This document shows positions 2,919-64,000 of a DNA stretch of 64,000 bases, in pieces (positions within the stretch are counted from its first letter, which is position 1; every line of letters starts with the position of its first letter). A program made the translations under genes and the position numbers. Below the pieces are notes generated by a model. The model was not told the DNA's origin. It ran no database searches and worked only from the letters and a program-made list of their open reading frames with translations. The stretch comes from a virus. The DNA is taken from positions 10,859 to 74,858 of the IMG/VR virus record IMGVR_UViG_3300023171_000011; one strand, written 5' to 3'.

Positions 2919-2923
2919 CAAAT

Positions 2924-2997: not shown

Positions 2998-3001
2998 CGT
3001 A

Positions 3002-3066: not shown

Positions 3067-3073
3067 GTTATTT

Positions 3074-3145: not shown

Positions 3146-3146
3146 C

Positions 3147-3219: not shown

Positions 3220-3225
3220 CTAAAT

Positions 3226-3297
3226 ATTTCTGTACGTCAACGGATAGACTACGAAGCTACGAACTTCGGAATAAGGTTTCGAATCCTTTCAGAAATA
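3226..3297 (+). tRNA. trnR: tRNA-Arg(ACG)
   Basis: atttctg/cagaaat acceptor; cgaag-ct-ACG-aa-cttcg; slightly irregular T arm. Confidence 0.8.
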
Positions 3298-3302
3298 CAA
3301 AT

Positions 3303-3382
3303 GCCCTGCTGACTTATGCAAACTGGTACAGCTACAAGTCTTAGAAACTTGGTTTTTCTCGGTTCGAGTCCGAGGTGGGGTA
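3303..3382 (+). tRNA. trnL: tRNA-Leu(TAG), atypical (short variable loop, long D region)
   Basis: gccctgc/gtggggt acceptor; caagt-ct-TAG-aa-acttg; ctcgg-ttcgagt-ccgag. Confidence 0.75.
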
Positions 3383-3388
3383 CTAAAT

Positions 3389-3462
3389 ATGCTGTTAGCT
3401 CAGTCGGTTAGAGCGCCACTCTTATAAGGTGGAAGTCAAAGGTTCAAATCCTTTACGGCATA
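3389..3462 (+). tRNA. trnI: tRNA-Ile(TAT)
   Basis: atgctgt/acggcat acceptor; gctc/gagc D stem; ccact-ct-TAT-aa-ggtgg; aaagg-ttcaaat-ccttt. Confidence 0.9.
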
Positions 3463-3746: not shown

Positions 3747-3866
3747 TACATTTGTGATGTAATGGCAAGATATTTGGAAGTAGTGAGCTGAATATCGTAA
3801 AGTCAATAAAGGCATTAAGAAACTGCCCCTGGAGAAACTCACTACCTTCAGGGGTTTTTTATTTTT
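3747..3866 (+). promoter_or_regulatory. promoter plus structured leader (two hairpins with complementary loops, second is terminator-like) of the replication operon
   Basis: TACATTTG 3747-54; hairpin 3769-3796; hairpin 3825-3855 plus T tract; loops gtagtgag/ctcactac. Confidence 0.7.
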
Positions 3867-9729: not shown

Positions 9730-9890
9730 TTTGCAAATCTACTTTTTTCACCATAGCTTTGATACAGCTTATACCCTTAGATGCAACATCAAAAAACAAG
9801 TAGAAACGTCATTTAAAATAATCTGAGGGGAGAAGTTTCTCTGGCTTTTGCTAGGGTATAAGCCACTTCAAACCTCAGTACTTTTTGGAT
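9730..9890 (+). promoter_or_regulatory. promoter plus structured leader of packaging/head operon
   Basis: TTTG 9730-33, 20 nt, TAGCTTTG 9754-61; gcttataccct (9767-77) complementary to agggtataagc (9853-63) in hairpin 9823-9878. Confidence 0.55.
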
Positions 9891-35347: not shown

Positions 35348-35491
35348 AGTAGTGGGAATTTAAAAATAGTTCCTATGTTTGAAGTGTAAGTAAAACATTG
35401 TGGGGTGAGAGACACAATTAAAAACATTAATAGGGCTTACTCGGCATCTGGACTCTCACCTCCTTTTGTCGGGTAAGCCTTAATCATTTTT
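35345..35491 (+). promoter_or_regulatory. promoter plus structured leader with complementary loops
   Basis: TATGTTTG 35374-81; hairpin 35397-35418; 15-bp hairpin 35432-35481; loops ggtgagag/ctctcacc. Confidence 0.65.
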
Positions 35492-39300: not shown

Positions 39301-40180
39301 GAAAACCCTTGACAGCGCAGCATTTCAACGTCTTGCAACCAAACAAAGGTTCATTAACCAAATTATGAAAGGTGAGGGAGTAGATAGGGTTATGGAAGAT
39401 GCTGCTGACGAAGCTCAAATGACTTTCGATGAGATGATGGCCCACTTATCTGATAGTCCTCATGCCATGACTAAATTGATGCTTGACAATCGCTTGAAAT
39501 CTGAGCGCATGAAAAGAGACAACCACTTCGCAAAACAAGTTCAAACCCAAAGACAACTGAATTATGCTTTAGAAGACATTGGTAAATTAGAAATAGAACT
39601 TGCTGAACAACAAAAATATTCCTCAGTAGTGAAAGAGTTCTTCCCCAATAGGTTTGTCTTCATGCAAGCCGGCAAAGAAAAGTACGCAGAACAGTTTGGT
39701 ACAGCTTGCGACACCTACGTTGACTCTTTGATGGAGCTTTATATCAACAGCCCAACAGGAGTCGTGATGGGTTCGTTTCTGATCAACGATGTGAAAGTAA
39801 ACGTAAAGATCCACACAGCAGAAAAGTACAGCAAGAAAACAAAAGGCATGATTCCATATCCGGTATTGAGCTATACTTGTCCGGAGATCGGTATCTTTGA
39901 AAACATCCATGGTAGCGGAAGACAAGTGAACACCAATCAGGGAATGAGCATGATCAACGACATTCAATGGCAACTTGATTTGATTAAAGATGAACCCGAT
40001 CAATTGAAAGACAAAATAAGACGCATTAGAGTCACTACAAGCGAACTTGAGCGCACAATGGATAAAGTATTCGATGAGACACGTTTGAATGGCTTAGAAG
40101 AAGAGATTGAGGTATTGAAAGGCAAGATGCTTGCGGAGAAGAATAAAGTGGTAGAACAAGATGAATTAATAATAGAATGA
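36362..40180 (+). CDS. DarB-like SNF2/SF2 helicase lacking methyltransferase domain
   Basis: DEYLSGNVRVKL, LGAAWIP, HVVGSGKT, IDEFH, TGTPISNT, MGVGVNAQ, EQRNGRIERQGN. Confidence 0.8.
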   Translation: MSLYDKLLQKTSKSIYLNQKRTSDQAYVVDKETGNWIPIEKTYEADLGLKGDFYVHLALKGNGWVVSEGMSGSSLSTGTTMEVAVMAAKSKVQGYIKKHSEELFYDLLLKAKEKLTKKNPRYIPTLEKLEEVVPEPVIEPIPGVGNHDVSPEPITLKSVVRDCLNYKNTIDVDYISEALGLDSEEVENQLLAEELVFYNPENNVLEAPDEYLSGNVRVKLIKAEEAAINNPMFLRNVEKLKEVQPEQIPSAFIQYSLGAAWIPKEVFEKFATDMFKTKVKIQYLELTGKYSATAYFSGGPQIKMTYAAGGKNGLEILNATLNNQQITISETKSGKTTKNLDKTAAAQGMQEQMQDEFQAFIRANRDIEESTEKEYNEIFNSRVTRNFVIPDLVHYPGASTHIYLLKHQKAAVIRGLNHSTLFAHVVGSGKTLVIITTAMELRRLGKATKPMIVVQNKTRGQFIASFMDLYPDANILAPTGLELTTAYRAELYYKIRDQDWDAIILPASQFDMIPDDLDRQKKILADQINEVQEVLYNIDKRVMPQEYASVNRQLRGLRKDLGDIEINEEQRRNARELASQVDGSKPLLNFEDLGVDALLIDEFHRYKRLGGIYTALANVKGIDVQKSNRSQSTLLKMRWVQQHNEGRNTLVYTGTPISNTMAEAWTMIRYVRPDILKKIGIQHFDQFAKTFGQVIPSLEQTGGGTFKIQNRFAKFQNLPEFIAAFRECTDVVLKEDIAEFHLNDMIPKLHGGQIKQEIIKQSEELRLQIKEFRELLEWYDELEGMDRRKYSYIPLVVFGRAKQASIDLRLLSPANKDVPNSKVNQVIRHALRIYHETGLVQMIFSDLYQSPEPKEPFIDEDCQIPNPAYGMPRFNLFNDIKQKLIAQGVKPHEIAILTEPKYDKAEKAEQLFADANAARIKFLLGSTERMGVGVNAQKRLIGLHHVDAPNRPMDFEQRNGRIERQGNLNKEIHIFAYGVEKTLDSAAFQRLATKQRFINQIMKGEGVDRVMEDAADEAQMTFDEMMAHLSDSPHAMTKLMLDNRLKSERMKRDNHFAKQVQTQRQLNYALEDIGKLEIELAEQQKYSSVVKEFFPNRFVFMQAGKEKYAEQFGTACDTYVDSLMELYINSPTGVVMGSFLINDVKVNVKIHTAEKYSKKTKGMIPYPVLSYTCPEIGIFENIHGSGRQVNTNQGMSMINDIQWQLDLIKDEPDQLKDKIRRIRVTTSELERTMDKVFDETRLNGLEEEIEVLKGKMLAEKNKVVEQDELIIE

Positions 40181-49903: not shown

Positions 49904-50050
49904 ATGGCTTTAAATTGGTGGTAATAATATTCTATATATGAATTTGAGGACTTGCCTATATAATTCATACGCAAGTGAAATAGATATTTTATTGACATAT
50001 TCCTACTTAGCGACTTTGCTCTTTTTATGTTATTAAATTTCATAGTAATA

Positions 50051-50290
50051 TTACTTATTATCTAGTGTATTTAAATGAATAAATCTTAGGTTCGCTATCT
50101 CTGAGTCTTTCATTTTACTGTGGGTTATAGCAAAGTTATAAGCAGCGTTAGAGGTGGCTATAAGATCGCATATCTGTTGATACTTGTTCCTGTCGTTTTC
50201 ATCACTGTTCATAACTGCATATTGAGCGATATCCTCTGGCTGTACAGTTAACGGGTTGTCCATCATTTCTTGATAATCCCTATGCTTCAT
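50051..50290 (-). CDS. hypothetical protein
   Basis: ORF in - strand run. Confidence 0.5.
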   Translation of the reverse strand: MKHRDYQEMMDNPLTVQPEDIAQYAVMNSDENDRNKYQQICDLIATSNAAYNFAITHSKMKDSEIANLRFIHLNTLDNK

Positions 50291-50391
50291 TTCATTTTTC
50301 TTTTAAAGAGCCCCCACTATGGAGAGCTCTCTGGTTTATAGCCTATTTCGCAGTAGTCTATGATGATTAACTTATTTGCCTACTACTTTTG

Positions 50392-50565
50392 TTACTTTGA
50401 GTTCTTAGCCTCCGTTACCTGGGTTCTGATCAACTGAGCTAGAACCTTTACTTCTTGAAGGGACTTACGAATCCGGGTTCCTGCAGCTTTGTTTCCTTCT
50501 GAAAACTTTAATACATCCGCTTGCATAGAAGCTACTTTGTCTTTTAATTCCGTGAATTTTTCCAT
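50392..50565 (-). CDS. histone H1-like (Hc1-family) nucleoid protein, 57 aa
   Basis: MEKFTELK...GNKAAGTRIRKSLQEVKVLAQLIR; missed by ORF track. Confidence 0.85.
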   Translation of the reverse strand: MEKFTELKDKVASMQADVLKFSEGNKAAGTRIRKSLQEVKVLAQLIRTQVTEAKNSK

Positions 50566-50597
50566 TGTTTTTGATTTAATTGTTATGATTGAATTGA

Positions 50598-50987
50598 TTA
50601 ATACTTGTTACCACCGTCTTTATCACGGTTTTCTTTTTTGTGATCGGCCCTTTGTTGATTGTATTTTAGTTTTTCAATCAAGGCACCACCTAAATCGTAA
50701 CCTTCTATGCCGGCCAAGTCACACACCCGTATGATTACATCAGCAAGCTCTACTTCGGCCATTGGCCTGTTGGGTAGGTGATCGTCCATAAGTCCCTTAC
50801 GGTGTCCTTCTAGGGCTTCTGATGCTTCGCTATGGATAAGTGCTATCCTTGTCCCGAACTCTACAGGCTTATCGTGCCAACCTGAGTCTTTTGATAGACC
50901 TGAGCAGAGTCTTACTAGGGTATTTAACTGATCGGCCATATAGGTCCCTAATACTCTTAACTCTTGCTGATTGTTTGTTTCTTCCAT
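50598..50987 (-). CDS. MazG-like nucleotide pyrophosphohydrolase
   Basis: IALIHSEASEALE...EVELADVIIR; start MEET at 50987. Confidence 0.8.
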   Translation of the reverse strand: MEETNNQQELRVLGTYMADQLNTLVRLCSGLSKDSGWHDKPVEFGTRIALIHSEASEALEGHRKGLMDDHLPNRPMAEVELADVIIRVCDLAGIEGYDLGGALIEKLKYNQQRADHKKENRDKDGGNKY

Positions 50988-50988
50988 G

Positions 50989-51264
50989 TTATTTGATTTT
51001 AAGTAAATTTTGATACTTGGCGACCGAATCAGAAAACCTCTTTCTATCTGATTTATGTCCATTCTGACTACTGTCTATATATACTTCCATAAAAGCCGTA
51101 TAAGCGGCTAATTGTTCGTAAGTGAGGCAACGGCATGGTTCGGGTTGTTGGGTGGCTTGTGAGGGCTTAAAACGATGTGTTATATCCCACGCTGTACAGA
51201 ATACAAAGTGACAAACCAATATTATGAGGACTGTATCCTTTATTGGAGGTGAATAGTATTTCAT
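50989..51264 (-). CDS. hypothetical protein with N-terminal hydrophobic segment
   Basis: ORF in operon. Confidence 0.45.
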   Translation of the reverse strand: MKYYSPPIKDTVLIILVCHFVFCTAWDITHRFKPSQATQQPEPCRCLTYEQLAAYTAFMEVYIDSSQNGHKSDRKRFSDSVAKYQNLLKIK

Positions 51265-51473
51265 ATTTTGTTTTTAAGCATTAATGTAGAGGTAAGTGAA
51301 TTTAAATATTCGACCAAAGATTTTGTGGACTTCACGAATGGTAAGCATCCCTTAAATCTGATCATAGCATATTTATCTTCTACAGCCATAACCGTAAGTA
51401 TCACGTTATTTTCCGACTGACGCACCAAAAACTTCTGACCTTTTTTAAATTCAAAATCTTTAGTTATCATCAC
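51261..51473 (-). CDS. hypothetical protein
   Basis: Overlapping ORF chain. Confidence 0.45.
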   Translation of the reverse strand: MMITKDFEFKKGQKFLVRQSENNVILTVMAVEDKYAMIRFKGCLPFVKSTKSLVEYLNSLTSTLMLKNKI

Positions 51474-51693
51474 TCAATAGTTTAGTAATATCAGTCATCA
51501 CCTCGGAGTCGTCTTCAATATAGTAGTCTCCGTGTTTCTCTACATTCAGCTTGATCTCTCTGAGAATGTCGGTTGCTTGCTTGAGTTTGGATTCAAGTTG
51601 ATTGTTTCGAAGACTCAGATCATTGTTCTGATTCTTTACGCTGTCGTAGCCTAATACCTTAAGCTGATCGGTTGAGTTGTTTTGGTCTTTCAT
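51460..51693 (-). CDS. hypothetical coiled-coil protein
   Basis: Overlapping ORF chain. Confidence 0.45.
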   Translation of the reverse strand: MKDQNNSTDQLKVLGYDSVKNQNNDLSLRNNQLESKLKQATDILREIKLNVEKHGDYYIEDDSEVMTDITKLLSDDN

Positions 51694-51893
51694 ATATAGA
51701 TTATTTGCCCTGTTTTAATCATTGAATTAATATGCTTAGGATTTTTGTGAGGATTAATTGATGTCGGGTAGTGTTTTGCTAAAATTACATATTGGTCAGA
51801 CCTCATCAACTTTAGCTTACCACGTATAGATATTTTTCTAATAATATTTTTCATTTTGCTATCTAAGTTTATGATCGATTTGATCGAGTTCAA
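51690..51893 (-). CDS. hypothetical protein
   Basis: Overlapping ORF chain; start uncertain. Confidence 0.35.
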   Translation of the reverse strand: MNSIKSIINLDSKMKNIIRKISIRGKLKLMRSDQYVILAKHYPTSINPHKNPKHINSMIKTGQIIYI

Positions 51894-52047
51894 AAAGTAG
51901 TGTGTCTAATTGCGATAAATAAAGAGTTGGCACGTTAGTCATTCCCCTTATATCTTCCTCTGATTCTTTTACAACTTTTGATGCCATTTCTACTATCTGG
52001 TCTTTTTTTAGCTGATGCTCTGCTTGTAATAATAATTTTTCTTGCAT
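51859..52047 (-). CDS. hypothetical protein
   Basis: ORF in operon. Confidence 0.45.
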   Translation of the reverse strand: MQEKLLLQAEHQLKKDQIVEMASKVVKESEEDIRGMTNVPTLYLSQLDTLLFELDQIDHKLR

Positions 52048-52050
52048 GGT

Positions 52051-52554
52051 TTATAAGATTATGATTTTTGATTTCAATGTATCAGGCACAGTGGACCATC
52101 CAAGTTTACCATGCCACGCAAAAGGTTCTATAGCCTGTACCTCTCCATATTCATGGCACCACAATTGTTTTTTAGTAGTTCCTTTTGCTCCTTCTTTATA
52201 CCATGGACTTACGTACTGTACAAAACAATTCTCAGAGTCATTACTGTTCATTGGTTGGCTATTTATAAGCTTACCGATGGCTATAGCGACTCCGGTTGGT
52301 TGAGTTGACCAATTAGAAGTATCGCCTTGAAAGGTGTCATATATCCTCTTAAATTGAGCGTCACCTGATATTTCTCTTAATTGCTTACTTGAGTAAGGTG
52401 CTTTGCTTGCGCAGATAAGAACCCAACCTAAATATTTTGAGCCCCATACCCTTGTTTCTACTTTTCCATGCAACATAAGTGATGCAAATGGTTGTTTCCA
52501 ACTCAAAGCCTTTAAGGTTTCGTTTGGATACTTGTCGGTAAATGTTGTTTTCAT
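52051..52554 (-). CDS. ASCH domain protein
   Basis: KALSWKQPFASL..GKVETR, VLICAS, HGKLGW; start 52554. Confidence 0.8.
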   Translation of the reverse strand: MKTTFTDKYPNETLKALSWKQPFASLMLHGKVETRVWGSKYLGWVLICASKAPYSSKQLREISGDAQFKRIYDTFQGDTSNWSTQPTGVAIAIGKLINSQPMNSNDSENCFVQYVSPWYKEGAKGTTKKQLWCHEYGEVQAIEPFAWHGKLGWSTVPDTLKSKIIIL

Positions 52555-52556
52555 AT

Positions 52557-52949
52557 TTATACTTTTGATTTTAATGTGATTACTTCTGTTGTTTCGCTTT
52601 GTTTCTTTGGGAGGATGTGTTTGGTTATCCATTGGGTAATTGTGTAGACTGAAACATTGTGTCTGTCTCCGATAACCGTCATAGGGTCAAATGTAGTGCA
52701 GTAGTCTTCCATGACCTCAGCAACCTTAGCGTTGGAGTGTTGGTTAGACTGAAACTTTCTTGGTGGACTGTAGGGCTTCATTCCGTAGTCCCTGAGCTTC
52801 ATATAGATTAAGAAGATACTAAAACCCAATGCTTTTGCCATATGGATTGTAGTACAGGTTTTATGGTGCATCACAAGATATTCTAGGTCCTGTTGAGAGA
52901 ACATCTTTCTGGTGGTGTTTTTTACACGTGTTTCCTTTAAGGTTAGCAT
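52557..52949 (-). CDS. putative HTH DNA-binding protein
   Basis: MAKALG and IGDRHNVSVYTITQW helix-turn-helix patterns; promoter TACATTTG at 52985-52978. Confidence 0.5.
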   Translation of the reverse strand: MLTLKETRVKNTTRKMFSQQDLEYLVMHHKTCTTIHMAKALGFSIFLIYMKLRDYGMKPYSPPRKFQSNQHSNAKVAEVMEDYCTTFDPMTVIGDRHNVSVYTITQWITKHILPKKQSETTEVITLKSKV

Positions 52950-53022
52950 TGGTTGGTGGTAATTTTGTTTTCTTAATCAAATGTAAACGTCGTGTCTTTT
53001 AAAACCTAGAGAAAGTTGATAT

Positions 53023-53565
53023 TTATTTTCTACTCCTTTCGGACTTACTCTTTATTTTGTGGCAATCAACGCACATAAAGGTGAAATTAGATAGCCAACA
53101 AGCACCTCCACCTTGATGAACCGGAAGTGTGTGCTCTAAATGAATAGGTGTGCAAATCATTCCGTATTGACTAGGTTTTGCAGGGATGTCGTCTGAACAC
53201 TTTCCGCATTTACAGCACCTATAATCGTAAACCTCATTTAAAGCTACCTTTATAAAGTCTGCCTTACCGATCAAAATACACAAAACTTGTCTACCGAAAA
53301 TTGAACACTCCTCTGTGGCCCACGAACTTCGTCTACCCTCACATTTGGCACCACAACCGCACCTACATATTTTTTCTTCGTTAGAGGGGAATACCCATTC
53401 CATCGGCACATAGTTATTGCGCTGGTAGGCATTTATCTTATCAGATATAGCTTCATATACCGGAGTTGGGTCAAATTGAAATAACCGACGGAAGCGTGGG
53501 TTGATCTCCGATAGGTCGTCAATGATTAACATTTGTCTAGCTTGCTGTATTAAATCTAAGGCCAT
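53023..53565 (-). CDS. HNH endonuclease with N-terminal CRCGCG zinc site
   Basis: CCKC...LEHTLPVHQGGG...NF..MCVDCH. Confidence 0.75.
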   Translation of the reverse strand: MALDLIQQARQMLIIDDLSEINPRFRRLFQFDPTPVYEAISDKINAYQRNNYVPMEWVFPSNEEKICRCGCGAKCEGRRSSWATEECSIFGRQVLCILIGKADFIKVALNEVYDYRCCKCGKCSDDIPAKPSQYGMICTPIHLEHTLPVHQGGGACWLSNFTFMCVDCHKIKSKSERSRK

Positions 53566-53568
53566 GAT

Positions 53569-53850
53569 TTATACTTTTAAGTCATTGAGGTGTTTAATAA
53601 GGTAAAGTCGCCCAAAACACTTGAATTGAAACACTACATTTTCCATATTGATACGAGCACCGATGTTGTTTATGGTTTCGCTTGCTTCTTCTCTTGTGAC
53701 TTCGTACTCTGTGTATTGGGCTACAAAATGATCTACTGAGATGGTCCCTATTATCACTATTCTAAACCCAATAAAAATAGCTGTACCGGTATAGTTGTTA
53801 ACTATTTCTTGAGCCTCATTTAAGTTCTTTATCATTGCTAATTTATCCAT
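53569..53850 (-). CDS. hypothetical protein
   Basis: ORF in operon. Confidence 0.45.
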   Translation of the reverse strand: MDKLAMIKNLNEAQEIVNNYTGTAIFIGFRIVIIGTISVDHFVAQYTEYEVTREEASETINNIGARINMENVVFQFKCFGRLYLIKHLNDLKV

Positions 53851-54424
53851 GATCTTTATATTTTTTTATGATATCCAAATAATCCTGTTTACTCATTTTA
53901 AATGCTTGACCGTACTTGAATGACTCCAGCCATAAAACCTTTTCTAATCCTATCTTTTCAATAAGGTTGACTCTGTATCCGATTAGGTGGTTAGGGTCGT
54001 TACGATTGCAATTTTCACATTCCGAGTTAGCGTTAAGTTCATTGAATTTTAACTCAAGGATAGTCCCTGGGCGATAGTGTCCGCAATCACAAACATCAAT
54101 GTGCTGATAGACTCCGCAACTAATACATTTGAACTGACTACCCTCAGCATCACGTTTACGTATGAAGCGATTAAAGAGTATTGTAGCGAGTTTCTTTAGC
54201 GCACTAAGGCTAAGTTCCTTTGTTTTCTTTTTAGTCGCTGTAATCGGCTTATTTGGCTTCGTTTCGGTTGACTTTGCTATTGGTTTCCTTATGGTGTGAC
54301 ACTGAAATGAGTTGTGCTTATTTATTGCTCCACAATGTTTGCACGTAACCGTTTTATTCTCTTTCACGTTTCCTCCTCCTCCTTGGTTTACCTCTTTCTG
54401 ATAAATATTCAATAGCGTTATCAA
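53843..54424 (-). CDS. ninG: NinG/Rap-like recombination endonuclease
   Basis: FNRFIRKRD, CISCG, DCGHY, FNELNANSECENCN; true start may be GTG 54367. Confidence 0.8.
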   Translation of the reverse strand: MITLLNIYQKEVNQGGGGNVKENKTVTCKHCGAINKHNSFQCHTIRKPIAKSTETKPNKPITATKKKTKELSLSALKKLATILFNRFIRKRDAEGSQFKCISCGVYQHIDVCDCGHYRPGTILELKFNELNANSECENCNRNDPNHLIGYRVNLIEKIGLEKVLWLESFKYGQAFKMSKQDYLDIIKKYKDHG

Positions 54425-54653
54425 CCATCATCATGTCCCAAGTATATCTGCGTTTGAAATTCCTACTGTATGAGTAATTTTGCATTGAATCCCACTGTTC
54501 TTTTGTGTACTGTTGTGCTGCTTTGCCGTTTACAGTCCAATAGTGAGTATAATAATACCATGGGTCTTTACATCTTTCCATTTCAGCTAACCAAAATTCT
54601 TTAGTTGGTTCTGCTGTATGAATGGTTTCTGGTATGAAGTTAAATTGTTCCAT
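54354..54653 (-). CDS. hypothetical protein resembling a terminase N-terminal segment
   Basis: EFWLAEMERCKDPWYYYTHYW. Confidence 0.4.
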   Translation of the reverse strand: MEQFNFIPETIHTAEPTKEFWLAEMERCKDPWYYYTHYWTVNGKAAQQYTKEQWDSMQNYSYSRNFKRRYTWDMMMVDNAIEYLSERGKPRRRRKRERE

Positions 54654-54693
54654 AGCTAATCAATTAAAGTTCTTTTTTTGGCAACAGGACTTT

Positions 54694-55014
54694 TTATTTT
54701 TCATAATCATAATTAAATGTGGTTGTGTAGTTGAATTTATCTTCTAGCCAAAACATAGCAATTTGAGACATCCGATGCATTAAAGCCTTGGATTTCATAT
54801 TTAACTTAATTATACCACTTTCTACAAGTATACCATTATTCCTTAATACAGCTAGGCATTGGTCTTCCGCTGCCATATGAAGCTCTACAGAAGAATGTAC
54901 CTTACCCTCAGCATACTTCTCAAGAAGTCCGGCTAGAAACTCATCATTCTGATCAAAGCGTGGAGGGAGCTTCGATTGGTTAGCCATCTCCTCTAAAAAT
55001 TCTTTTCCTGTCAT
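54694..55014 (-). CDS. hypothetical protein
   Basis: ORF in operon. Confidence 0.5.
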   Translation of the reverse strand: MTGKEFLEEMANQSKLPPRFDQNDEFLAGLLEKYAEGKVHSSVELHMAAEDQCLAVLRNNGILVESGIIKLNMKSKALMHRMSQIAMFWLEDKFNYTTTFNYDYEK

Positions 55015-55025
55015 AATTATTAATT

Positions 55026-55817
55026 TTAATTACTATCAATATCTTCTAAGGCTTTTTTATAAGACTCTAAGTTTTTATTAGCGGACTCAATATTTTTGAT
55101 ATACGATTGACGCTTATTTTCTTTGTAAGCCGATAATTTGTCTGGGTCTAATGTTATACCGTATTCTTTTGCTTGTAGTATAGTATCGTCTGAAATATTT
55201 TTTGCAACTAGAAGTTCTTTAAATTTGTCTAATGCCAATTCATAATTTTTAAATGGATGGAAAGAAGCCCTATTACCGCCTGACCCATCCGAATACTGTC
55301 CTTGCTTAAATGTTAACGTACCATCATCATTTCCATAAATAGAAATTAATCTTAAGTTGCTCTTATCCCAATATCCATCGTAGCTTTCTGACTGTTGAAA
55401 TTTATCTATGTCTATCAACTCAGTTTTGTACCCTTCCACCACGATATATTTTATGTTACCGCATAGATAGTCAGTAATTAAATTGAAGCTCTCCTCAGAT
55501 ACATTTTTCAATGCCTTAGCCACATAACATAGTTTAGCTGATAATTCCTCTCTAGTTCTCCTTAACCCCTTGTTCAACTCATCCATTCTCTTATCATGAG
55601 CTTTTCTTTCTCTTTCATAAAGAGCATCTAACTTTTTTATCTCAGATTCTTTCCATGATACAGCCGGAGCATCATGCAATGATTTAACGACAAAGTTCTC
55701 TCCACTAGGAACCTCAATATTGTTTACTAAAAAAATCTCTTGCACTATTTTCTCTTGTGCGTTAAGGTTGCCGATAACTACTACTTTCTTACCGTCTGTT
55801 GTAAATTTAATTTCCAT
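55026..55817 (-). CDS. conserved phage coiled-coil protein
   Basis: TTDGKKVVVIG..IVQEIF..GENFVVKSL pattern. Confidence 0.55.
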   Translation of the reverse strand: MEIKFTTDGKKVVVIGNLNAQEKIVQEIFLVNNIEVPSGENFVVKSLHDAPAVSWKESEIKKLDALYERERKAHDKRMDELNKGLRRTREELSAKLCYVAKALKNVSEESFNLITDYLCGNIKYIVVEGYKTELIDIDKFQQSESYDGYWDKSNLRLISIYGNDDGTLTFKQGQYSDGSGGNRASFHPFKNYELALDKFKELLVAKNISDDTILQAKEYGITLDPDKLSAYKENKRQSYIKNIESANKNLESYKKALEDIDSN

Positions 55818-55853
55818 CTTTTTTAGGTTTTATATATGATTTTTACTGTCAAA

Positions 55854-56669
55854 TTATTGGGATACTACTTTATTCATCAGCCTACTCGGCCTTGAAGCAA
55901 TTATTTCAATCTTATTTGGGAGGCATCTAAACACGAGTCCTGTCTTATTGGAATGCTGGTATTTATTACTGATGTAACGTTCTCTAAATTCTCTGTAAGG
56001 GATAGCAAAAGGTTCAACTATTTTAAAGTTCCGTTGTGATCGGATAAGTTTAAGTTTGTTGAATTTCTTTTGCAGTCTTAGTCCTGTTGATTGAGATTGA
56101 TTGAATGTTGCTCCTATATTTCTGTTACTTAAAATAAAATCGTCGTTGATGGAAGTTTCTAGCTGTGTGTTGGTAAGTTTTAGCTTTTGTTGGGCCTTTA
56201 AAAGTTTTTTGGTTCCTTTAGGGTCGCTACGCTTGCTGTGATGAATCTTTATAATGTCCTTCTTTAACTTGGTGATTTTATATTGAGTGTTGAGTTTGTT
56301 TTTTATGAGTATAAATTTAACGAGAGTCTTTTGGTCTGCTATTTTGTTGATTACTCTAATGGCACATTCTGCTCCTGGAAATAGCAATAATAATTTTGCT
56401 CTGCCGGTACACAAAAGGTTTCCGTTATTATAGCTGATTAAGCCGTTTGTAGCCATTATCTCTAAATGCTTAGATAATGTGCTAGGTGAACAGTTGATCG
56501 CTCTTGAAAGGCTTCTTAATGTAAAGTTATAAATAACCCCTTTTTTATGTAACCCCCTTATTTGAGTAAAATAACTTATTGAGTTTAGCCAACCTTTTTC
56601 ATTCGCTGTTCTGACTAATCCTACGGGAAGCCAAACTTTGTGTGAATAATTGGATTGGATGTATTTCAA
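55854..56669 (-). CDS. basic winged-HTH DNA-binding protein
   Basis: LRSLSRAINCSPSTLSKHL...GLI; second HTH-like LSNRNIGATFNQSQSTG; TTG start. Confidence 0.55.
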   Translation of the reverse strand: MKYIQSNYSHKVWLPVGLVRTANEKGWLNSISYFTQIRGLHKKGVIYNFTLRSLSRAINCSPSTLSKHLEIMATNGLISYNNGNLLCTGRAKLLLLFPGAECAIRVINKIADQKTLVKFILIKNKLNTQYKITKLKKDIIKIHHSKRSDPKGTKKLLKAQQKLKLTNTQLETSINDDFILSNRNIGATFNQSQSTGLRLQKKFNKLKLIRSQRNFKIVEPFAIPYREFRERYISNKYQHSNKTGLVFRCLPNKIEIIASRPSRLMNKVVSQ

Positions 56670-56849
56670 AATAAAAGGGTTAGTAATGTCAACATTGTAC
56701 TTTGATTCGGACCCTGGCAGGACTTGTAGTACATCTGTTTTATTACTAACCCTTCTAATGTATCATTGGGGTTATTGTGTGATCGTCTGCGCCTGCCAGG
56801 GTCGCTCTGATCAATACCCAAAGATAGTGTGGTTTTTCGTTATTCCAAA
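56668..56849 (-). promoter_or_regulatory. promoter plus structured leader with 12-bp loop complementarity and terminator-like hairpin
   Basis: TTTG (56849-46), 19 nt, TATCTTTG (56826-19); 56792-56803 complementary to 56710-56721; 13-bp stem 56675-87/56742-54 plus T tract. Confidence 0.7.
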
Positions 56850-57325
56850 TAAAGTCGTGTCTTTTTTTCTAAAATATTTTCACCACATCATTTAAAGCTG
56901 CTAAAGCGAGTATAAAAAGAACTATTGCTTCAAAGACAACGAGTACTTTAATCGCTGTGTGGTTTTTGAAGGACTGGTTCGGTTGCGTTGTCATAGCTCT
57001 ACAAATTTAATAATTATCTCTTTAACTACTCTTGAAGCCGAATGAGAGATATATTCACCTCTCTTATATTTTTCGTATTGTTCCATTATACCCTCTACAG
57101 ACCAATCATAACCTTGCTCTCTGATAAAGAAATCTATTTTTTCGTGTAAAGTTTCTGCTTTATTCATTTTGTTTCCAGGTTAATTAAATCCTTCATTGTT
57201 AATTGATCGCCTTTCTCTTTAATGAGCTCATAGGTCTTAATGAACTTCTCTATATTGGTTGTGGTGATGGAGATGTTCTGCATTCTCATGGCTATCTCCA
57301 TTAGTTTTACTTCTTCGGTCATGGA

Positions 57326-57517
57326 TTAAATAATTCGGTATTCACCTTTAAGTTGTTTAATTACGTGCTCTGTTGTAGCTGTAAGACTCCCGTAGGCCAT
57401 TGCAGAGGCACCGTAGTGATCTTTATTAAACGTATCCTTAGACAGCTTTAATCCTTTTTCTAAAGTGCCTATTAATTTCTCTACGTCTTTTGCTGGTATT
57501 GATTTTATTTTGCTCAT
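57326..57517 (-). CDS. hypothetical protein
   Basis: ORF in operon. Confidence 0.45.
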   Translation of the reverse strand: MSKIKSIPAKDVEKLIGTLEKGLKLSKDTFNKDHYGASAMAYGSLTATTEHVIKQLKGEYRII

Positions 57518-57519
57518 AA

Positions 57520-59040
57520 TTATAAATTTTTACGTCTTCCATACTCAGCTAAACACACAGCATCTGTGATGCCATCCCAATCATTTTTAGACCTTGTAGT
57601 AGCTCTAAAGTCTGCGTTTGGATATAATCTATGTGCAGCTTTCATTGAGGTCAGCTTAGTGTCTACAGAGGCTTTCTTTTGCTCAGGTTTAATTGGTTTG
57701 TATTCCATGTCGTTATTCTCCCAGATTTCCTTCTGCCATGTTTTTGGGGCTACACGAGATAGTTTAATCTTGCTTACAGCTATGATACCGTCAAGGATTC
57801 CTAAAGTATGCCCCATGGAGAAGTTAGTCGATGCACTCATCCCGAACAAACTATGTACGTCCTCTAAAATAAGGGTAGGATTATGCTTTTCTTTAAGTCC
57901 ATTTAAGATGATCCAAATACCTTCTGCATCGACGTTATCACCGATCAATGGTATAACCCATTTACCGACTATGCCTTGATTTGATATAGCAACAATTCCA
58001 CCTTTTTTGCCTGGATCTACGCCAATCCACATTGGTTGTTTCTCTCCCCATAAAGCCTTATCAAATGCTTTGTTTATTAAGGCTGGTGTAATTTCAATTT
58101 CTTCTGCCGGATTAGGATATCCGTATGCTTGTTCAAATGTTCCGTTATCAATATTGTCTTGAGCTGACTCTGCAATAGCAACCATTGCTTGATCTACTTC
58201 TTCTTTGCTCATCTCAAACAGATCGGGTTGTCCCGTGTCTTCTATGCCAGTGGTATATTTAGGGTCAACTGAAACTCTATTGCCATCTATAGTCTCCCAC
58301 ATACCGCCTTTATCTAATTTGTATTGATCTTGGAGAACATCATAGTCCACAACCTGCCAGCCGTCCTCTTTTCCATCAGTAATAACCCAAGTTCCCAAAG
58401 GCAGAATATCAGTTTTATTTATTGATTGAGGCACATCAATGTCCTGCGGCTTCCTACTTGCTTGATACCTGTCTTGTGCTTCACGTAATCCAGGAGGTAG
58501 ACCGTCTCTGTAATTTTTCACTGCTTTATCGACCTCCTTAATCACGGAAGCTATTGGCTCTACCACTTGGCCTATCTTAGCTTTTGAAGGGCTTACAACC
58601 TCTGTAAACGCTTCTGCCAACGGGTCTTGTTCCATTGCCATCCAATCCCTGAAAGAAGTGTAACCATCTGGTCTTGCACGACGATACTGATAGTATGCTT
58701 CATTGCGTTCCTGATGGGTTGGAATGTCAGCGTTTGTTTTGAACTCTCCTGCATTTAGCTTTTCAGTGAACACACTATCCATTGCTTGAAGGGTAGCTAG
58801 GTCTTGTTCGTCTTCTGGCTTAATTTCAGGTTCTTTTCTAGCAAATATACCCTTGCTCTCATTAAAGTCCTCAGTGATGTCTACCATAGTAAACTCAGGT
58901 TCTGTTTTAGGCTTCATTTCAGGGGCTACAGGCTCATCAAATAGTTTACTCGGCTGAATGGCTGACTGAATTGGTTCTTGCTCTTGTCTCTCCTCTATTG
59001 GCTTTGTTTTCGATTGGAAAACTTTATCATATAGTCCCAT
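57520..59040 (-). CDS. ruvC: RuvC-like Holliday junction resolvase with long acidic N-terminal extension
   Basis: IGVDPGKKGG, LILEDV, FSMG, VAPKTWQK, DGITDAVCLAEYG from about residue 337. Confidence 0.8.
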   Translation of the reverse strand: MGLYDKVFQSKTKPIEERQEQEPIQSAIQPSKLFDEPVAPEMKPKTEPEFTMVDITEDFNESKGIFARKEPEIKPEDEQDLATLQAMDSVFTEKLNAGEFKTNADIPTHQERNEAYYQYRRARPDGYTSFRDWMAMEQDPLAEAFTEVVSPSKAKIGQVVEPIASVIKEVDKAVKNYRDGLPPGLREAQDRYQASRKPQDIDVPQSINKTDILPLGTWVITDGKEDGWQVVDYDVLQDQYKLDKGGMWETIDGNRVSVDPKYTTGIEDTGQPDLFEMSKEEVDQAMVAIAESAQDNIDNGTFEQAYGYPNPAEEIEITPALINKAFDKALWGEKQPMWIGVDPGKKGGIVAISNQGIVGKWVIPLIGDNVDAEGIWIILNGLKEKHNPTLILEDVHSLFGMSASTNFSMGHTLGILDGIIAVSKIKLSRVAPKTWQKEIWENNDMEYKPIKPEQKKASVDTKLTSMKAAHRLYPNADFRATTRSKNDWDGITDAVCLAEYGRRKNL

Positions 59041-59043
59041 GTA

Positions 59044-59472
59044 TTATTTGCTTAAACCATACTCGTTAAAGTACTTGTTGTAAATTTTATTATTGTGAAC
59101 CTCTAATTTTTTGTAATAGATATCATTCCATTTATCGTTAGCTGAAATCTCTTTGGGATATTTATCTACATTCTGTGCCCACCAAATTATCCCCATACGG
59201 CTGTATTCTGGATATGGTGGCTCACCAATTTCATCTATGATTTCTTTAACATAATCTAATCCACTTGTTTCATTGAAATATGCTTCCTTAATTTCCTCTG
59301 GAACGCTATCCCATCTTTTACGGTACTCTACCTCTTCTTTAAAATATTCTGGATGTTCTGTTATTGCTTTTTCAAATGCTTCCGTTCCTACGGGTATACT
59401 ATCATAAGACATACCCCAAACGTAAAGAACTAATGGTGGCACATTATTAATGTCAAATTCTTTTGCTTTCAT
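59044..59472 (-). CDS. hypothetical protein
   Basis: ORF in operon. Confidence 0.5.
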   Translation of the reverse strand: MKAKEFDINNVPPLVLYVWGMSYDSIPVGTEAFEKAITEHPEYFKEEVEYRKRWDSVPEEIKEAYFNETSGLDYVKEIIDEIGEPPYPEYSRMGIIWWAQNVDKYPKEISANDKWNDIYYKKLEVHNNKIYNKYFNEYGLSK

Positions 59473-59660
59473 TTCCCTGTTTTTAAACTATCAATACCTT
59501 TATCAATTACCAGCCTCCATACAGCAGCGTCTTTAATCTTTTTACCTCTGATGGTTTTGTCTCTTTTGGCTTCCATCTTGGTTGCTATCTTGGATACTTC
59601 TTTAATTTGATCCTCGAATATATCAAGAGACTTTGATTTTATTTTTCTTTCTTCTTCCAT
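59469..59660 (-). CDS. small basic protein, possibly ribbon-helix-helix
   Basis: KSKSLDIF strand followed by helices. Confidence 0.35.
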   Translation of the reverse strand: MEEERKIKSKSLDIFEDQIKEVSKIATKMEAKRDKTIRGKKIKDAAVWRLVIDKGIDSLKTGK

Positions 59661-59677
59661 TGTGATTTAAGTTTGTG

Positions 59678-59750
59678 GAATGAAGGGCAGATTCGAACTG
59701 CCGACCTGTGGTTTAGTCACCACTGCTCTAGCCTCTGAGCTACTCCATTC
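59678..59750 (-). tRNA. tRNA-like gene with 6-nt anticodon loop (undetermined)
   Basis: gaatggag/cttcattc 8-bp acceptor; gctc/gagc D stem; gtggt-GACTAA-accac; ggcag-ttcgaat-ctgcc. Confidence 0.75.
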
Positions 59751-59766
59751 TTTTGGGATGCAAATA

Positions 59767-61020
59767 TTATTCAAATAAAACGTAAGACAATTGATCGTTA
59801 ATGTCGCCTGTTTCCACCTCTCCTTTTATGTCTGAGGTAGCAACATCCAATTTCTCTTTGATCGCTATCCTCATTTGAAGCTTTCCAAAAGGAAACTGAA
59901 TAAAAGGTTTTAATTTAGTGAACACAAGACTACGGGTAAGTACATTCTCTTCAATAGCTGAGGGTTCAATGACTTGGACTGTTTCTTTTGCTGGTTGAGA
60001 AATAATAACTGAACCAAATGAAGCTGATGGAATAGTCATGCTTTCCCTCTCAGGTTCAATATCAACTGGTTCTTTGAAGTCATCAGCAATAGAAGCGAAT
60101 GAAGTTTGTTGTTGAACTTCCGGCTCAGGAGCAACAACTGGTACCGGCACAAACAATGCTTTCCAACCTGCAGCATCTAAAGTTAAGATTTGCTCTTCTG
60201 TGATACCTTCTCCATCTCCTTTAAACCACACGTCATTGATAGTTTCACCTAAAGCGTAACCCTTCATCTCTAGTTGCTCTTTACGGAACTCTGTACGCTC
60301 TGCATTTAAATCTTGGAGCTGAGCCTTAAGTTTATTCTGCTCCGCTTCCTCAGCGTCTTTAATTGCTTGCAGACGATCAGTCTCTTCTTTCCATGCAAGT
60401 TCAATATCAACGGTAGCCTTTTTGTAGTCTTCCTCATTTAAAGCACGTAGATCAGAAGCGAGGATAAAAATTCCTCCATCGTGTTCAAAATTGTAAGTAC
60501 CGTTTTTAAGCACACCACCCATGGCAACAATTTCCTCCGCACGTACAGCAGCAACCCTATCTTTTTCCTGTTCTGCTAATAACCTTTGTTCCTCAATGTA
60601 GTTGTCAATCGGAGCGATAATGTCTTCAAGATGTTTCTCTCCTTTCTTACACAATTCAGCGGCTTCGTCAATAGGCTTTTTAAGGTCTTTACCGAACTTT
60701 AACACCGGAGCCATAACTTTCTTCCTCCAAGCCTCAGAAGTCGTTCTTAGCTTAGATATGGACTTCAATTTAGCGACTGCTTTATCGTACCCTTCTTTGT
60801 CGGTAACTCCAGCTATTGCCATCTTCTCTACTTCTGCGATCTCACTGGTTAGAATAGCGATATTCAATTCAACTCCATTGATATTTAGAGTTTCCGGAAT
60901 GACAGGAAGATTTACTTTATCTTCGATTCTCGCAAGTCCTTTGTTTTCTGAAACATCGATAGCACCTTGTGCTGCGGTTTCTGTAGTTTCCTCTACTTCT
61001 GTTATTTCTTCGTTTTGCAT
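59767..61020 (-). CDS. coiled-coil protein in recombination module
   Basis: Long heptad-rich region downstream of nuclease/RecT. Confidence 0.5.
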   Translation of the reverse strand: MQNEEITEVEETTETAAQGAIDVSENKGLARIEDKVNLPVIPETLNINGVELNIAILTSEIAEVEKMAIAGVTDKEGYDKAVAKLKSISKLRTTSEAWRKKVMAPVLKFGKDLKKPIDEAAELCKKGEKHLEDIIAPIDNYIEEQRLLAEQEKDRVAAVRAEEIVAMGGVLKNGTYNFEHDGGIFILASDLRALNEEDYKKATVDIELAWKEETDRLQAIKDAEEAEQNKLKAQLQDLNAERTEFRKEQLEMKGYALGETINDVWFKGDGEGITEEQILTLDAAGWKALFVPVPVVAPEPEVQQQTSFASIADDFKEPVDIEPERESMTIPSASFGSVIISQPAKETVQVIEPSAIEENVLTRSLVFTKLKPFIQFPFGKLQMRIAIKEKLDVATSDIKGEVETGDINDQLSYVLFE

Positions 61021-61031
61021 TTTAGTTCGTT

Positions 61032-61838
61032 TTATAATTCAACAATATCGTATTCAGGTATTACCCTTTCAAATTTGCATTTAGCTTTACATTTACTACA
61101 ATTGGCATAAGTATTTTTAGGTGTCCAATCATCCATTGCAATCGCTAAACTGATTTCATTGTAGACTTGTGATAGTCTTTCAATGTGCATAAAAACCGAG
61201 TAGTCAGTTATGACTCTTGTTCCGTTTGGTAATTCAGCCCCTACTTTGATCAATTTGCTTTTCAGGTCTTTCTTGGAGTCGAATACCCAATACTCCGTTC
61301 CAGGCATATCAGTTTTGTATTTGATTTTATAAAGCAGCGCATAGTGGATGATTTGAGACATATCCAATCTGCTAGGATCTTTCCAAGCATAAGGGCCAAA
61401 ATCATTATCGGTATCGGTAGTGAATTTCAAGTCAATTACAATCATTCTACCATCTTTCATGAAGTATACAATATCAAGGGTTCCCTCGATTGGTATAAGC
61501 TGTCCTGAGCTATCTTCTACTTGAACTGATATATATTCTTGTCTTGATTTTATCTTACCTCCTAGAGACTTTAGCCATGCTTTACATTTAAATGATTGTT
61601 CCTGTACTCGTTCGTAGAAAACTGACTTCTTCATTTTGGCACCACCTTCTACGGTATCAATATCAAAAGCTCCGTTAATACCGCCACCAATTACAAGGGT
61701 TTCAAATAAGTTTCCCCATTGCATAGGTTCGGTAGTAGCCCACTCAACTGTTTTGTCAATGTGAACGGCTTTAAACTCTACAGGGCACATAGTTTCCCAA
61801 GCTCTCATCTTACTATTCGATAACTTAAAGTTTTCCAT
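61032..61838 (-). CDS. PD-(D/E)XK exonuclease (RecE-like partner of RecT)
   Basis: LSNSK, IEGTLDIV, VIDLKFT, QIIHY, C-terminal CxxC. Confidence 0.8.
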   Translation of the reverse strand: MENFKLSNSKMRAWETMCPVEFKAVHIDKTVEWATTEPMQWGNLFETLVIGGGINGAFDIDTVEGGAKMKKSVFYERVQEQSFKCKAWLKSLGGKIKSRQEYISVQVEDSSGQLIPIEGTLDIVYFMKDGRMIVIDLKFTTDTDNDFGPYAWKDPSRLDMSQIIHYALLYKIKYKTDMPGTEYWVFDSKKDLKSKLIKVGAELPNGTRVITDYSVFMHIERLSQVYNEISLAIAMDDWTPKNTYANCSKCKAKCKFERVIPEYDIVEL

Positions 61839-61925
61839 TGCGTTTTCTCCTAGTTATAAAATCCATTGATACGCCTGTTACTAAGAACAGGATGAGCGTA
61901 AACCATATTTGAAACTCCGTTAACA

Positions 61926-62930
61926 TTATTCTGCAGGTGTGGTTTCTTCTGTGATTTTCTCTTTAGCAAATAAAATCTCTGCTTCTAAAAGCTTGATATA
62001 CTCTTCTGCTTTTGATTTCTCCATCTTACCGCTTAACTGGCTTTTTTCTAATCCTGTTTTTAATTGTGATACCAATACGGTAGGTAGGTAATGAAGATTG
62101 GTCATTTTAGTGAAGCATTCTTCTTCAAGCAACTCAAACATTTTTTTGAAGTCATCGTCTGTAGCAAGAGCAGGAGCAGCAGGTGTTGCATTCTCCTGAG
62201 ATCCATCTGTTTTCTTAGCATCCAAATCTTGTTTTTCTTTGTCGAAGTCAATACCATTGTTCTCATCATCCATTGCGATAATATTTGCGGCCATGATTGC
62301 GCGATCAGATTTAGGTAAGAATTTCCAGTGACGTTTAATGACTGTCTTACGTATCATCTCGTCTTCGTCGGTTAACCACGGTGTAGCTTTACCCGCTTTA
62401 ACTCCTTCTGAACGATTTTTAATAGCGATAAGCTGTTCTTCATACATCCATTCCACATGATCGCTACCATCGTTTAAAACAGCTATACTGTAAGCTCCTA
62501 TTCTTTCACCTTTCTTTCCATCCTTGCAGATACCATGCTTAACAAAACCATTAGAACCTTGCTCAATCTCAAACGGTTCATTTGAGTAAACAGGTTTGGC
62601 TTTGATTGATTTAACTGATCCAGTGTCTGTGATGATCTTGATAAGACCCATATAGCTGGGATCTAAGCAACACTTACCCTTACGTGGTACTAGGTATGCC
62701 ATTTTCATTACCGGACTCAATGTAAGACCTGACAAGGCCACATTAACTAAGCAATTCTTAACACTGCCTTGCTCCATACCCAATAGGTAGGTGTTGTTTT
62801 GGAAAGCCTGAACAGCAAACTCCATTTCTTTAGCGAAGTCAACCTTATTCAGATTCATTTCATCAAAGCTAGGTCTGGTAGCTGCGAGGTCTTTTTTAAG
62901 TTCGTCTATTTTTGCGAGTGTGTACGCCAT
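61926..62930 (-). CDS. recT: RecT-family single-strand annealing protein
   Basis: GLTLSP..AYLVP..SYMGL, IGAYS, PWLTD.DEM.RKTVIKR..KFLP. Confidence 0.9.
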   Translation of the reverse strand: MAYTLAKIDELKKDLAATRPSFDEMNLNKVDFAKEMEFAVQAFQNNTYLLGMEQGSVKNCLVNVALSGLTLSPVMKMAYLVPRKGKCCLDPSYMGLIKIITDTGSVKSIKAKPVYSNEPFEIEQGSNGFVKHGICKDGKKGERIGAYSIAVLNDGSDHVEWMYEEQLIAIKNRSEGVKAGKATPWLTDEDEMIRKTVIKRHWKFLPKSDRAIMAANIIAMDDENNGIDFDKEKQDLDAKKTDGSQENATPAAPALATDDDFKKMFELLEEECFTKMTNLHYLPTVLVSQLKTGLEKSQLSGKMEKSKAEEYIKLLEAEILFAKEKITEETTPAE

Positions 62931-62932
62931 GA

Positions 62933-63310
62933 TTACAATAATTTTTCTAAGTGATTCAATATTACAAGTTGACTGCGATACGTAATGTCCGCTACCCTGA
63001 TCATTTTGTCGGAGTAAAGCAATTCAAATACATGACCGATTGATTGAATGCTAATACCATCAATATAAACCACCACTGAGCTATCGTTCTTAATTTCAAT
63101 AGGAGTGGTTCTTAGCGAGTGTATAAGCTCATCAAACTGATTTAATGGTAAAAGGTTAAGGCTTCGGGTTAAGTCGTCTTGTAGCCCTTGTTTCCATGCT
63201 TTTAAAGCGACAACATGCGCATCATGCAATGGAGTTTCTTTTTTAATTCGGGAGATTGGTGTAAAGAACTCAGGTTTCAGGTCGTTCTTTAGTTGGTCGA
63301 GTAAATTCAT
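62933..63310 (-). CDS. hypothetical protein
   Basis: ORF downstream of promoter at 63344-37. Confidence 0.5.
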   Translation of the reverse strand: MNLLDQLKNDLKPEFFTPISRIKKETPLHDAHVVALKAWKQGLQDDLTRSLNLLPLNQFDELIHSLRTTPIEIKNDSSVVVYIDGISIQSIGHVFELLYSDKMIRVADITYRSQLVILNHLEKLL

Positions 63311-63606
63311 TTTTGGTACGTGTTAGTTTTGTTATTCAAAAGTAGTGTCTTTTTATTAATTCCCACTACTTTAGCTCCGCATACAGCGTAATCAGTGCAG
63401 GGCGTAGGGCAAATGACACCTATTTTTTCAATTGTTTCTCCGTGCATTTTAGCTACTAAATCCATATCGGATAAAAACCCCTTGTAATCCCAAGTAAGTA
63501 TATCTATACCTAGCTTTATGTCAACCTGCTTTACGAACCAACCATTTTTTCTGTATGGGCTCGACTGATTGCCGGAGTGATCGTACAACGACAGTAATAT
63601 TTTCAT
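63307..63606 (-). pseudogene. 3'-truncated C5-cytosine DNA methyltransferase-like gene
   Basis: ILLSLYDHSG (motif I-like) and PTPCTDY (catalytic PC) but only 99 aa; tail reads through promoter. Confidence 0.55.
63337..63373 (-). promoter_or_regulatory. promoter sharing 16-bp upstream element with the promoter at 35345
   Basis: TAAAGTAGTGGGAATT-N13-TACTTTTG. Confidence 0.65.
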
Positions 63607-64000
63607 GATTCGTTTTCTATTTGATAAATATCAATTTGAACTACTTCCGGCAACACGTATGAGTTTTTATACCCTGATTCATTTTTACTAAACATACTTC
63701 TAATTAACGCATCTATATAACTTTCATCAGCATTAGTGTCTATTTCTAGTTCGACTATTATTTTCTTTCTCATCTTAACTACTAACTACAGGTAACCACT
63801 GTCCAATTTGATCGACCAAAGATTCATACTCTTCAATCTCATCGTCACTCATTTCTCTACCGCTTTCTTTTAACTTGTAAAGCTCGCTTAGTCTTTCAAG
63901 TTCTTGTGTGTATACGAATATCCAGTCTATTTTCATGATTTCAGTGATTTAAGGTAGTTAACAACTCTTTCTTTTGGTGTCTCTCCATATTTTTCTGCAC

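Follow-up and report, generated by a model that had tools for sequence, protein, structure and literature searches.

The lambda PR'-6S RNA-tR' unit, which is released by Q, and the put RNAs of HK022 are promoter-proximal terminator units of phages. The put RNA consists of two hairpins directly after the promoter and acts in cis, through a conserved sequence that binds RNA polymerase; Q works by way of a DNA site and a pause. The leader described here stands on the minus strand of a virus genome, within the window analysed, which makes up the final 64 kb of an IMG/VR virus record of 74,858 bp that is rated complete. With its candidate promoter and terminator-like hairpin, it shares with lambda and HK022 the order of promoter, short structured RNA, terminator and operon, but neither of those systems uses loop-loop complementarity, and no antiterminator was found for the present leader. 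In the CI RNA immunity of phage P4, seqB pairs with seqA and seqC in the leader transcript, and this pairing controls premature termination. Complementary segments inside a single phage leader transcript are found here as well. P4, however, employs a processed RNA that acts in trans with one shared sequence, whereas the pairing partners considered here are private to each leader, and the leader has no Rfam match of any kind.

Judged by analogy, the nearest tested precedent for gating by a kissing loop is the guanidine-IV riboswitch (mepA motif), where the first hairpin kisses the loop of the terminator hairpin, which impedes the completion of the terminator stem and leads to read-through (PMC11611296). 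In both cases two hairpins lie in a 5' leader, and the loop of the first is complementary to the loop of the second, a terminator hairpin there and a terminator-like one here, over 12 bp in the window and over 14 bp in two related phages (G002 and G003 below). The riboswitch differs in having conserved loop nucleotides and a short kissing loop that needs guanidine, whereas the loop letters of the phage leaders vary freely, their helix of 12-14 bp (about -25 kcal/mol) would need no ligand, and the second hairpin covers the start region as well. I do not count the leader as a member of the guanidine-IV class: no covariance model matched at E ≤ 1 (a result that presupposes a mepA model in Rfam 15), and there are no conserved loop nucleotides.

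In the IncI1 and IncB plasmids, a 5' stem-loop in the leader of repZ/repA pairs with a distal leader site, and the resulting pseudoknot is required for translation initiation (PMC8053102). There too the loop of a 5' stem-loop pairs distally within the leader of a tightly controlled gene for a DNA-binding protein. The plasmids need a translated leader peptide and an antisense RNA, whereas here the upstream ORF is not conserved and no convincing antisense promoter was found; having no conserved leader peptide, the leader was not assigned to this class either.

A scan with the models of Rfam 15 at E ≤ 1 returned only a tRNA in positions 50000-64000 of the window and nothing in the three orthologous loci, and a limited full-text search of the literature found no published description of such phage leaders. 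I take the leader to be a real RNA element absent from Rfam. By analogy, it would act most like a ligand-free kissing-loop terminator switch in the position of a promoter-proximal terminator.

The phage and the gene behind the leader

Shine-Dalgarno-like cores are rare in this phage, preceding 11% of the long ORFs in the window (the overall range given is 11-18% of ORFs). The regions upstream of the window's genes are rich in A (46%), and 59% of these genes have A at -3 (range given, 48-59%). Few Shine-Dalgarno cores, A-rich upstream regions and frequent A at -3 together form the pattern of Flavobacterium johnsoniae and other Bacteroidetes (PMC6847099). The same paper names the promoter motif of Bacteroidota sigma-A, TTTG at -33 and TAnnTTTG at -7 (PMC6847099), and a strict motif scan for TTTG-N17-21-TAnnTTTG found promoter-like sites upstream of several operons in the window. 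From these promoter-like sites and from translation signals poor in Shine-Dalgarno cores and rich in A, I infer that the host is most likely a member of Bacteroidota.

The leader lies inside a long leftward module that also encodes a PD-(D/E)XK exonuclease and a resolvase-like fusion protein. A 506-aa protein is encoded on the minus strand at 57520-59040; over its last ~170 residues it resembles a Holliday-junction resolvase family (PHROG 1770), and its N-terminal ~335 residues have no match. A lone tRNA-like gene (59678-59749, minus strand; Rfam tRNA, 49 bits) also sits inside the leftward early module.

Directly behind the leader is the gene of a 271-aa protein (55854-56669, minus strand, TTG start), whose N-terminal domain is of the winged-helix DNA-binding type and whose C-terminal domain is conserved and without assigned function. 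The earlier note had called it a winged-HTH gene, and the support for that is moderate. The AF2 model does have a winged-helix N-domain (it is poor beyond residue about 105), but Pfam HTH matches fall below threshold and Foldseek gives CRP/MarR-type matches only at E of 0.01 or more. Only six relatives were found in a large protein collection (seven proteins in all), and the protein has no match to a PHROG family and no sequence match in the PDB.

Architecture of the leader

I read the approximately 160 bases 5' of this gene as encoding a folded leader RNA in which the tips of two hairpins pair with one another, an RNA that probably limits expression of the gene downstream. All of the features lie on the minus strand. 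The candidate promoter consists of a -33 box TTTG (56846-56849), picked by the strict TTTG-N17-21-TAnnTTTG scan, and, separated from it by 19 nt, a -7 box TATCTTTG (56819-56826; consensus TAnnTTTG). Thus TTTG-N19-TATCTTTG has the TTTG at -33 and the TAnnTTTG at -7 that such a promoter requires, at a spacing within the required 17-23 nt. Transcription would start near 56815.

The predicted RNA opens with a 5'-terminal hairpin, HP1 (56780-56813), evident from both folds and sequence. It has an outer stem TGATC/GATCA (56813-56809/56784-56780) and an inner stem gcg/cgc (56805-56803/56791-56789), and its loop carries L1, GACCCTGGCAGG (56792-56803), which forms the 5' strand of the loop-loop helix. 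A linker of 22 nt (56758-56779), A/C-rich, poor in G and unpaired in all folds, leads to HP2 (56672-56757), which folds as an 86-nt hairpin of three tiers. Its basal stem of 16 bp (56757-56742/56687-56672) is made of a perfect 13-bp core (56754-56742/56687-56675) and an extension with one G.U pair. Above it are a middle stem of 4 bp (56739-56736/56694-56691), an upper stem of 6 bp (56733-56728/56701-56696) and an apical loop of 26 nt (56727-56702). In the middle of that loop is L2, CCTGCCAGGGTC (56710-56721), the perfect 12-nt reverse complement of L1.

HP2 is followed by a U tract, UUUUAUUUUG (56667-56676), that continues into the TTG start codon (56669-56667), with A at -3; the basal stem with its U tract ends 2 nt upstream of the TTG. 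In its A tract, GGG/CCC clamp and U tract the basal stem resembles an intrinsic terminator. A check of the letters bore out all the coordinates in the earlier note, from the -7 box through HP1, L1, the 13-bp stem base and L2 to the U tract running into the TTG. Two ORFs overlap the leader, one of 51 aa at 56666-56821 (minus strand) and one of 81 aa at 56650-56895 (plus strand), both most likely spurious, since neither frame is kept in the relatives.

Folding energy, chance and strand

The minimum free energy of the leader is -40 to -48 kcal/mol (z = -4.3 to -4.7), and none of 200 shuffles folds as well. By computation, the L1:L2 duplex contributes -25.5 kcal/mol, and HP1 and HP2 with free loops -28 to -31 kcal/mol. 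The loop-loop helix and the helices of the hairpins have no nucleotides in common and follow one another in the order a-b-a'-b', so that both can form together, and the summed energy of the coexisting helices is lower than that of either nested alternative. Because they use separate nucleotides, the kissing, pseudoknotted fold with both in place should be the ground state.

How surprising is the complementarity? The earlier note considered a perfect GC-rich 12-mer unlikely by chance, and it is the GC content that makes it so. A bare 12-mer is unremarkable: some inverted pair of that length within 20-160 nt turned up in 154 of 300 surrogates of the window made with a first-order Markov model. 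A pair with at least 9 G/C appeared in none of the 300. In the real window, the same distance test found inverted pairs of 12 nt or more only at L1/L2 and at the base of the HP2 stem, interleaved within 130 nt.

There are few G.U pairs, and these do not distinguish the sense from the antisense strand, the energies of which are about equal. That the acting molecule is the sense RNA is indicated by where the start codon lies and by the candidate promoter immediately upstream. On the plus strand, no good TTTG-N19-21-TAnnTTTG antisense promoter was found in 56340-56700; one candidate with two mismatches, read by eye, lies opposite the linker and is not conserved.

Comparison with related phages

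The window was compared with three related phage genomes of 70-74 kb (G001; G002, which is L003; and G003, which is L005) and with one variant that is ~95% identical. The three related genomes found came from a viral contig collection. Two scans of metagenome contigs gave nothing new with a leader, two scans of genome contigs gave no match, and a collection of phages from GenBank gave no DNA match.

The leaders of G002 and G003 have the same parts in the same order, written in other letters: a box (nnnCTTTG at the position of the -7 box, vs the full TAnnTTTG in the window), a short 5' hairpin, a G-poor linker and a long three-tier hairpin. The linker measures about 29-30 nt in the orthologs, compared with 22 nt in the window, and has a similar composition. 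The long hairpin ends 2-3 nt before the start codon or, in G003, over it. Loop-loop complementarity is present in both, TTTGGACGGC / GCCGTCCAAA, extended to 14 bp compared with the 12 bp of the window. The stem of HP1 and the inner stems of HP2 are rebuilt from unrelated letters, the HP1 stem being AAUAUC/GAUAUU in G002 and, by reading of the sequence only, GCGC/GCGC in G003, where a constrained fold did not draw it. The U tract after the GGG/CCC-clamped stem is UUUUAUUUU in the window, UUUUACUUU in G002 and a weaker UUUAGAUUG in G003. All four orthologs (window, G001, G002 and G003) retain a TTG start codon and an A at -3.

Covariation, a check that the earlier note had proposed, is present. 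Of the 12 L1:L2 pairs, six are the same in the window and in G002, and the other six have both letters replaced yet remain complementary; no pair is broken. Five more compensatory pairs, likewise with no broken one, lie in the HP2 basal stem. These pairs were counted in a register-anchored comparison, since L1 and L2 fell out of register when the leaders were aligned with MAFFT; RNAalifold recovers the HP2 basal stem even from a rough alignment. With HP1, HP2 and the loop-loop helix kept in two related phages through compensatory changes, the two-hairpin leader with complementary loops that the note described is real and under selection.

The relative with ~95% identity, which comes from a sequencing run of 2024, differs from the window by 49 substitutions over 55858-56994. 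None of the 40 whose positions are listed falls in 56635-56892, and that interval contains one 1-nt insertion, in the internal loop of HP1. As the positions of the other nine of the 49 are not shown, the case for purifying selection on the leader is suggestive rather than exact. The same relative has 168 nt of 56994-57163 replaced by 388 other letters, and it lacks a 195-nt stretch in 57324-57520 that includes a 63-aa ORF (57326-57517); the small ORFs upstream are thus variable, whereas the leader is not. Taking the architecture of the orthologs with its compensatory pairs together with a leader free of listed substitutions, the comparison shows selection on pairing within a single strand and not on a sequence bound by protein.

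This bears on the idea that the inverted repeats act as DNA, either as paired operators for the winged-helix protein or as a replication origin or recombination sites. The repeat CCTGGCAGG is nearly palindromic, the adjoining gene encodes a DNA-binding protein, and the energies on the two strands are nearly equal. However, repeats interleaved as a-b-a'-b', with compensatory changes spread over three separate helices, agree with pairing in a single strand and not with protein sites, and the repeats in the orthologs are not palindromic. The spacing from centre to centre varies (82, 87 and 81 bp) and so does not preserve the helical phase. A separate replication initiator and a polymerase/primase are encoded elsewhere in the phage; a segment of 70 bp would be too short to invert, and all the relatives have one orientation. 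I regard a DNA element as very improbable.

The relatives also bear on coupling to a leader peptide, as in the rep genes of IncI1/IncB plasmids, where translation of an upstream ORF would open HP2 and allow reinitiation. The window does have an ORF of 21 codons in HP2, running from the ATG at 56734 to a TGA at 56668-56666 that overlaps the TTG, and TTGA is found at the start in all four orthologs. But the frame is open for one codon in G001, for 23 codons without a start codon in G002 and for six codons in G003. The ORF exists only in the window, and I reject the model as scarcely credible.

Other leaders in these genomes

The earlier note presented this leader as the fourth of a family. Copy 1 (3747-3866) heads the replication operon, copy 2 (9754-9890) the terminase/portal operon and copy 3 (35374-35491) the operon with a DarB-like gene. 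G003 provides a further kissing-loop leader (L019; 58895-59011, plus strand), composed of a TACATTTG box, the loop GCCTTCGAA, a 14-bp hairpin holding TTCGAAGGC and then TTGTTATTTT and an ATG. It has a loop pair of 9 nt and a stem of 14 bp, and 10 nt separate its U tract from the start codon of the gene, which encodes a 182-aa HNH-like protein. The layout is alike in all copies, and in the non-orthologous members the hairpin ends with regularity 10-12 nt before the start codon.

Across the four phage genomes, loop complementarity of 8 nt or more is no higher genome-wide than in shuffles or in reverse, complement or same-strand controls, and other candidate pairs in the relatives are plain hairpins. 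Cognate loop pairs of 8, 11, 8, 12, 9 and 14 nt compare with a cross-leader mean of 5.8 and maximum of 8, a comparison that is descriptive only, the leaders having been picked for complementarity. Of the proposed family, then, the cases with 11-14 nt are secure, but the 8-nt pairs in copies 1 and 3 do not exceed control matches in length; that these two belong is plausible but unproven.

Several observations concern the surroundings of these copies. An array of six tRNAs (2848-3462, plus strand) lies upstream of copy 1. Copy 3 is followed by a 203-aa gene without a family match and then by the gene of a 1272-aa protein (36362-40180, plus strand), which contains methyltransferase and helicase parts and matches a DarB-like antirestriction family (PHROG 10089, E 5e-237). 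The 9-mer TTATACCCT occurs six times in the window (9769, 9853 on the minus strand, 20045, 37766, 57086 and 63667) where 0.63 would be expected, a number reached by none of 100 shuffles. The sites have no longer context in common, and two of them are the L1/L2 pair of copy 2.

In G001, the leader of the gene for the winged-helix protein is built differently. It has a TACTTTTG box, an 11-nt 5' segment, a canonical terminator with eight U, a second hairpin and an exact complement of the 5' segment, so that the 5' end pairs over 11 bp with a site downstream. This second type of leader, on the minus strand of G001 at about 6250-6450 (L002 2838-3003), combines the box with an AAGCCA...TGGCTT terminator plus 6-8 U. 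A homologous leader, on the minus strand of G002 at about 61300-61425, precedes another gene and has the pair TGCAAGTTATCC / GGATAACTTGCA. The 5' segment is 11-12 nt in this type, and the pair covaries between the phages, TGCGAATTACC in G001 vs TGCAAGTTATCC in G002. Long-range pairing of the 5' end together with a leader terminator is therefore a recurring combination. Judged from its layout, the second type could be a small RNA of roughly 58 nt with a free 5' seed.

Could the leader in the window likewise be a small-RNA gene, its product a terminated RNA of roughly 150 nt that acts in trans on nascent leaders through L1/L2, as does the CI RNA of phage P4? Its candidate promoter and terminator-like end bracket about 150 nt, and the second-type leaders of G001 and G002 resemble such an RNA, with their free 5' seed, canonical terminator and seed complement downstream. 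But a search for another target of L1 or L2 found none with up to three mismatches in the window and no notable 9-mer match in the whole 74.9-kb genome, which gives no support to a partner in trans, and pairing within the molecule should outcompete pairing between molecules. I think a small-RNA gene decidedly unlikely.

A model for control by the leader

I propose that the leader acts in cis to gate termination, initiation or both, with HP2 both resembling a terminator in its action and covering the start site, and with the loop-loop helix serving as the gate. I hold this model with slightly more belief than doubt. The leader RNA of the winged-helix gene would be made from its own promoter of the Bacteroidota type. 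The 16-bp basal stem of HP2 and the U tract may then behave like an intrinsic terminator. The same stem would pair positions -3 to -18, and thus occlude initiation over the ~18 nt directly before a weak TTG start. In Flavobacterium johnsoniae, secondary structure within -20 to +20 tunes initiation (PMC6847099). As initiation in Bacteroidota needs an unstructured start region, the basal stem should depress translation, and burying the start region would keep expression low in a host lineage that does not use Shine-Dalgarno pairing.

The gate would depend on the order of transcription. L2 would be transcribed about 22 nt ahead of the 3' arm of the basal stem and about 38 nt ahead of the complete stem; therefore the loop-loop helix can form first. 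An early L1:L2 helix would set how easily the basal stem closes, and in this way it would gate both read-through and access to the start site, by opening the stem or by locking it. The structure by itself does not force a switch, as no nucleotide is claimed by both L1:L2 and the basal stem. The two can coexist because the linkers are long (22-30 nt, plus loop flanks of 6-8 nt).

Some findings go against parts of this model. At 86 nt, HP2 greatly exceeds the usual length of intrinsic terminators, and G003 has a weak U tract; a scan with an intrinsic terminator consensus did not list HP2, a hairpin of 86 nt being beyond the range of the scan. As to gating, the long-range partner in G001 lies 3' of the terminator and is transcribed after it, so that its pairing cannot affect that terminator. 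For this reason both the small-RNA reading and a reading as a stabiliser stay alive.

According to the latter, the pseudoknot of HP1 and HP2 is a static fold, a constitutive stabiliser or insulator at the 5' end of the mRNA that would guard against decay dependent on the 5' end and hold the surroundings of the start site constant, without any switching. It agrees with the start of HP1 only 2-3 nt after the likely 5' end, with the compatibility of the two helices and their favourable summed energy, and with the leader of G001, in which a distal site pairs with the very 5' end. Still, a simple 5' hairpin would suffice for protection. Nothing in a static fold explains the need for a loop-loop helix of 12-14 bp, nor why the basal stem and U tract abut the start codon in every ortholog. 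I consider it doubtful.

The cis-acting gate may be extended to a class. In each operon the terminator or start-site hairpin would be opened or locked only by the 5' hairpin of the same leader, by way of a loop-loop helix private to it and without a ligand, the loops serving as addresses. The operons would be timed together by a factor from phage or host that reads the shape of the kissing complex and not its sequence, as Rop does with RNA I/II of ColE1. This wider scheme I put forward as unlikely, and as speculation.

Significance

The control of gene expression in phages of Bacteroidota is almost unexplored, and their hosts do not rely on initiation based on Shine-Dalgarno sequences. If the proposed model is true, then a conserved leader of fixed shape and free sequence, with one hairpin tip paired to that of a terminator-like hairpin, would be a new and simple regulatory device, with no ligand pocket and with its specificity residing only in complementary loops. 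Recognition of such leaders would help in annotating the starts of operons in uncultured phages, and the leaders themselves could provide mutually independent RNA gates for the engineering of Bacteroidota.
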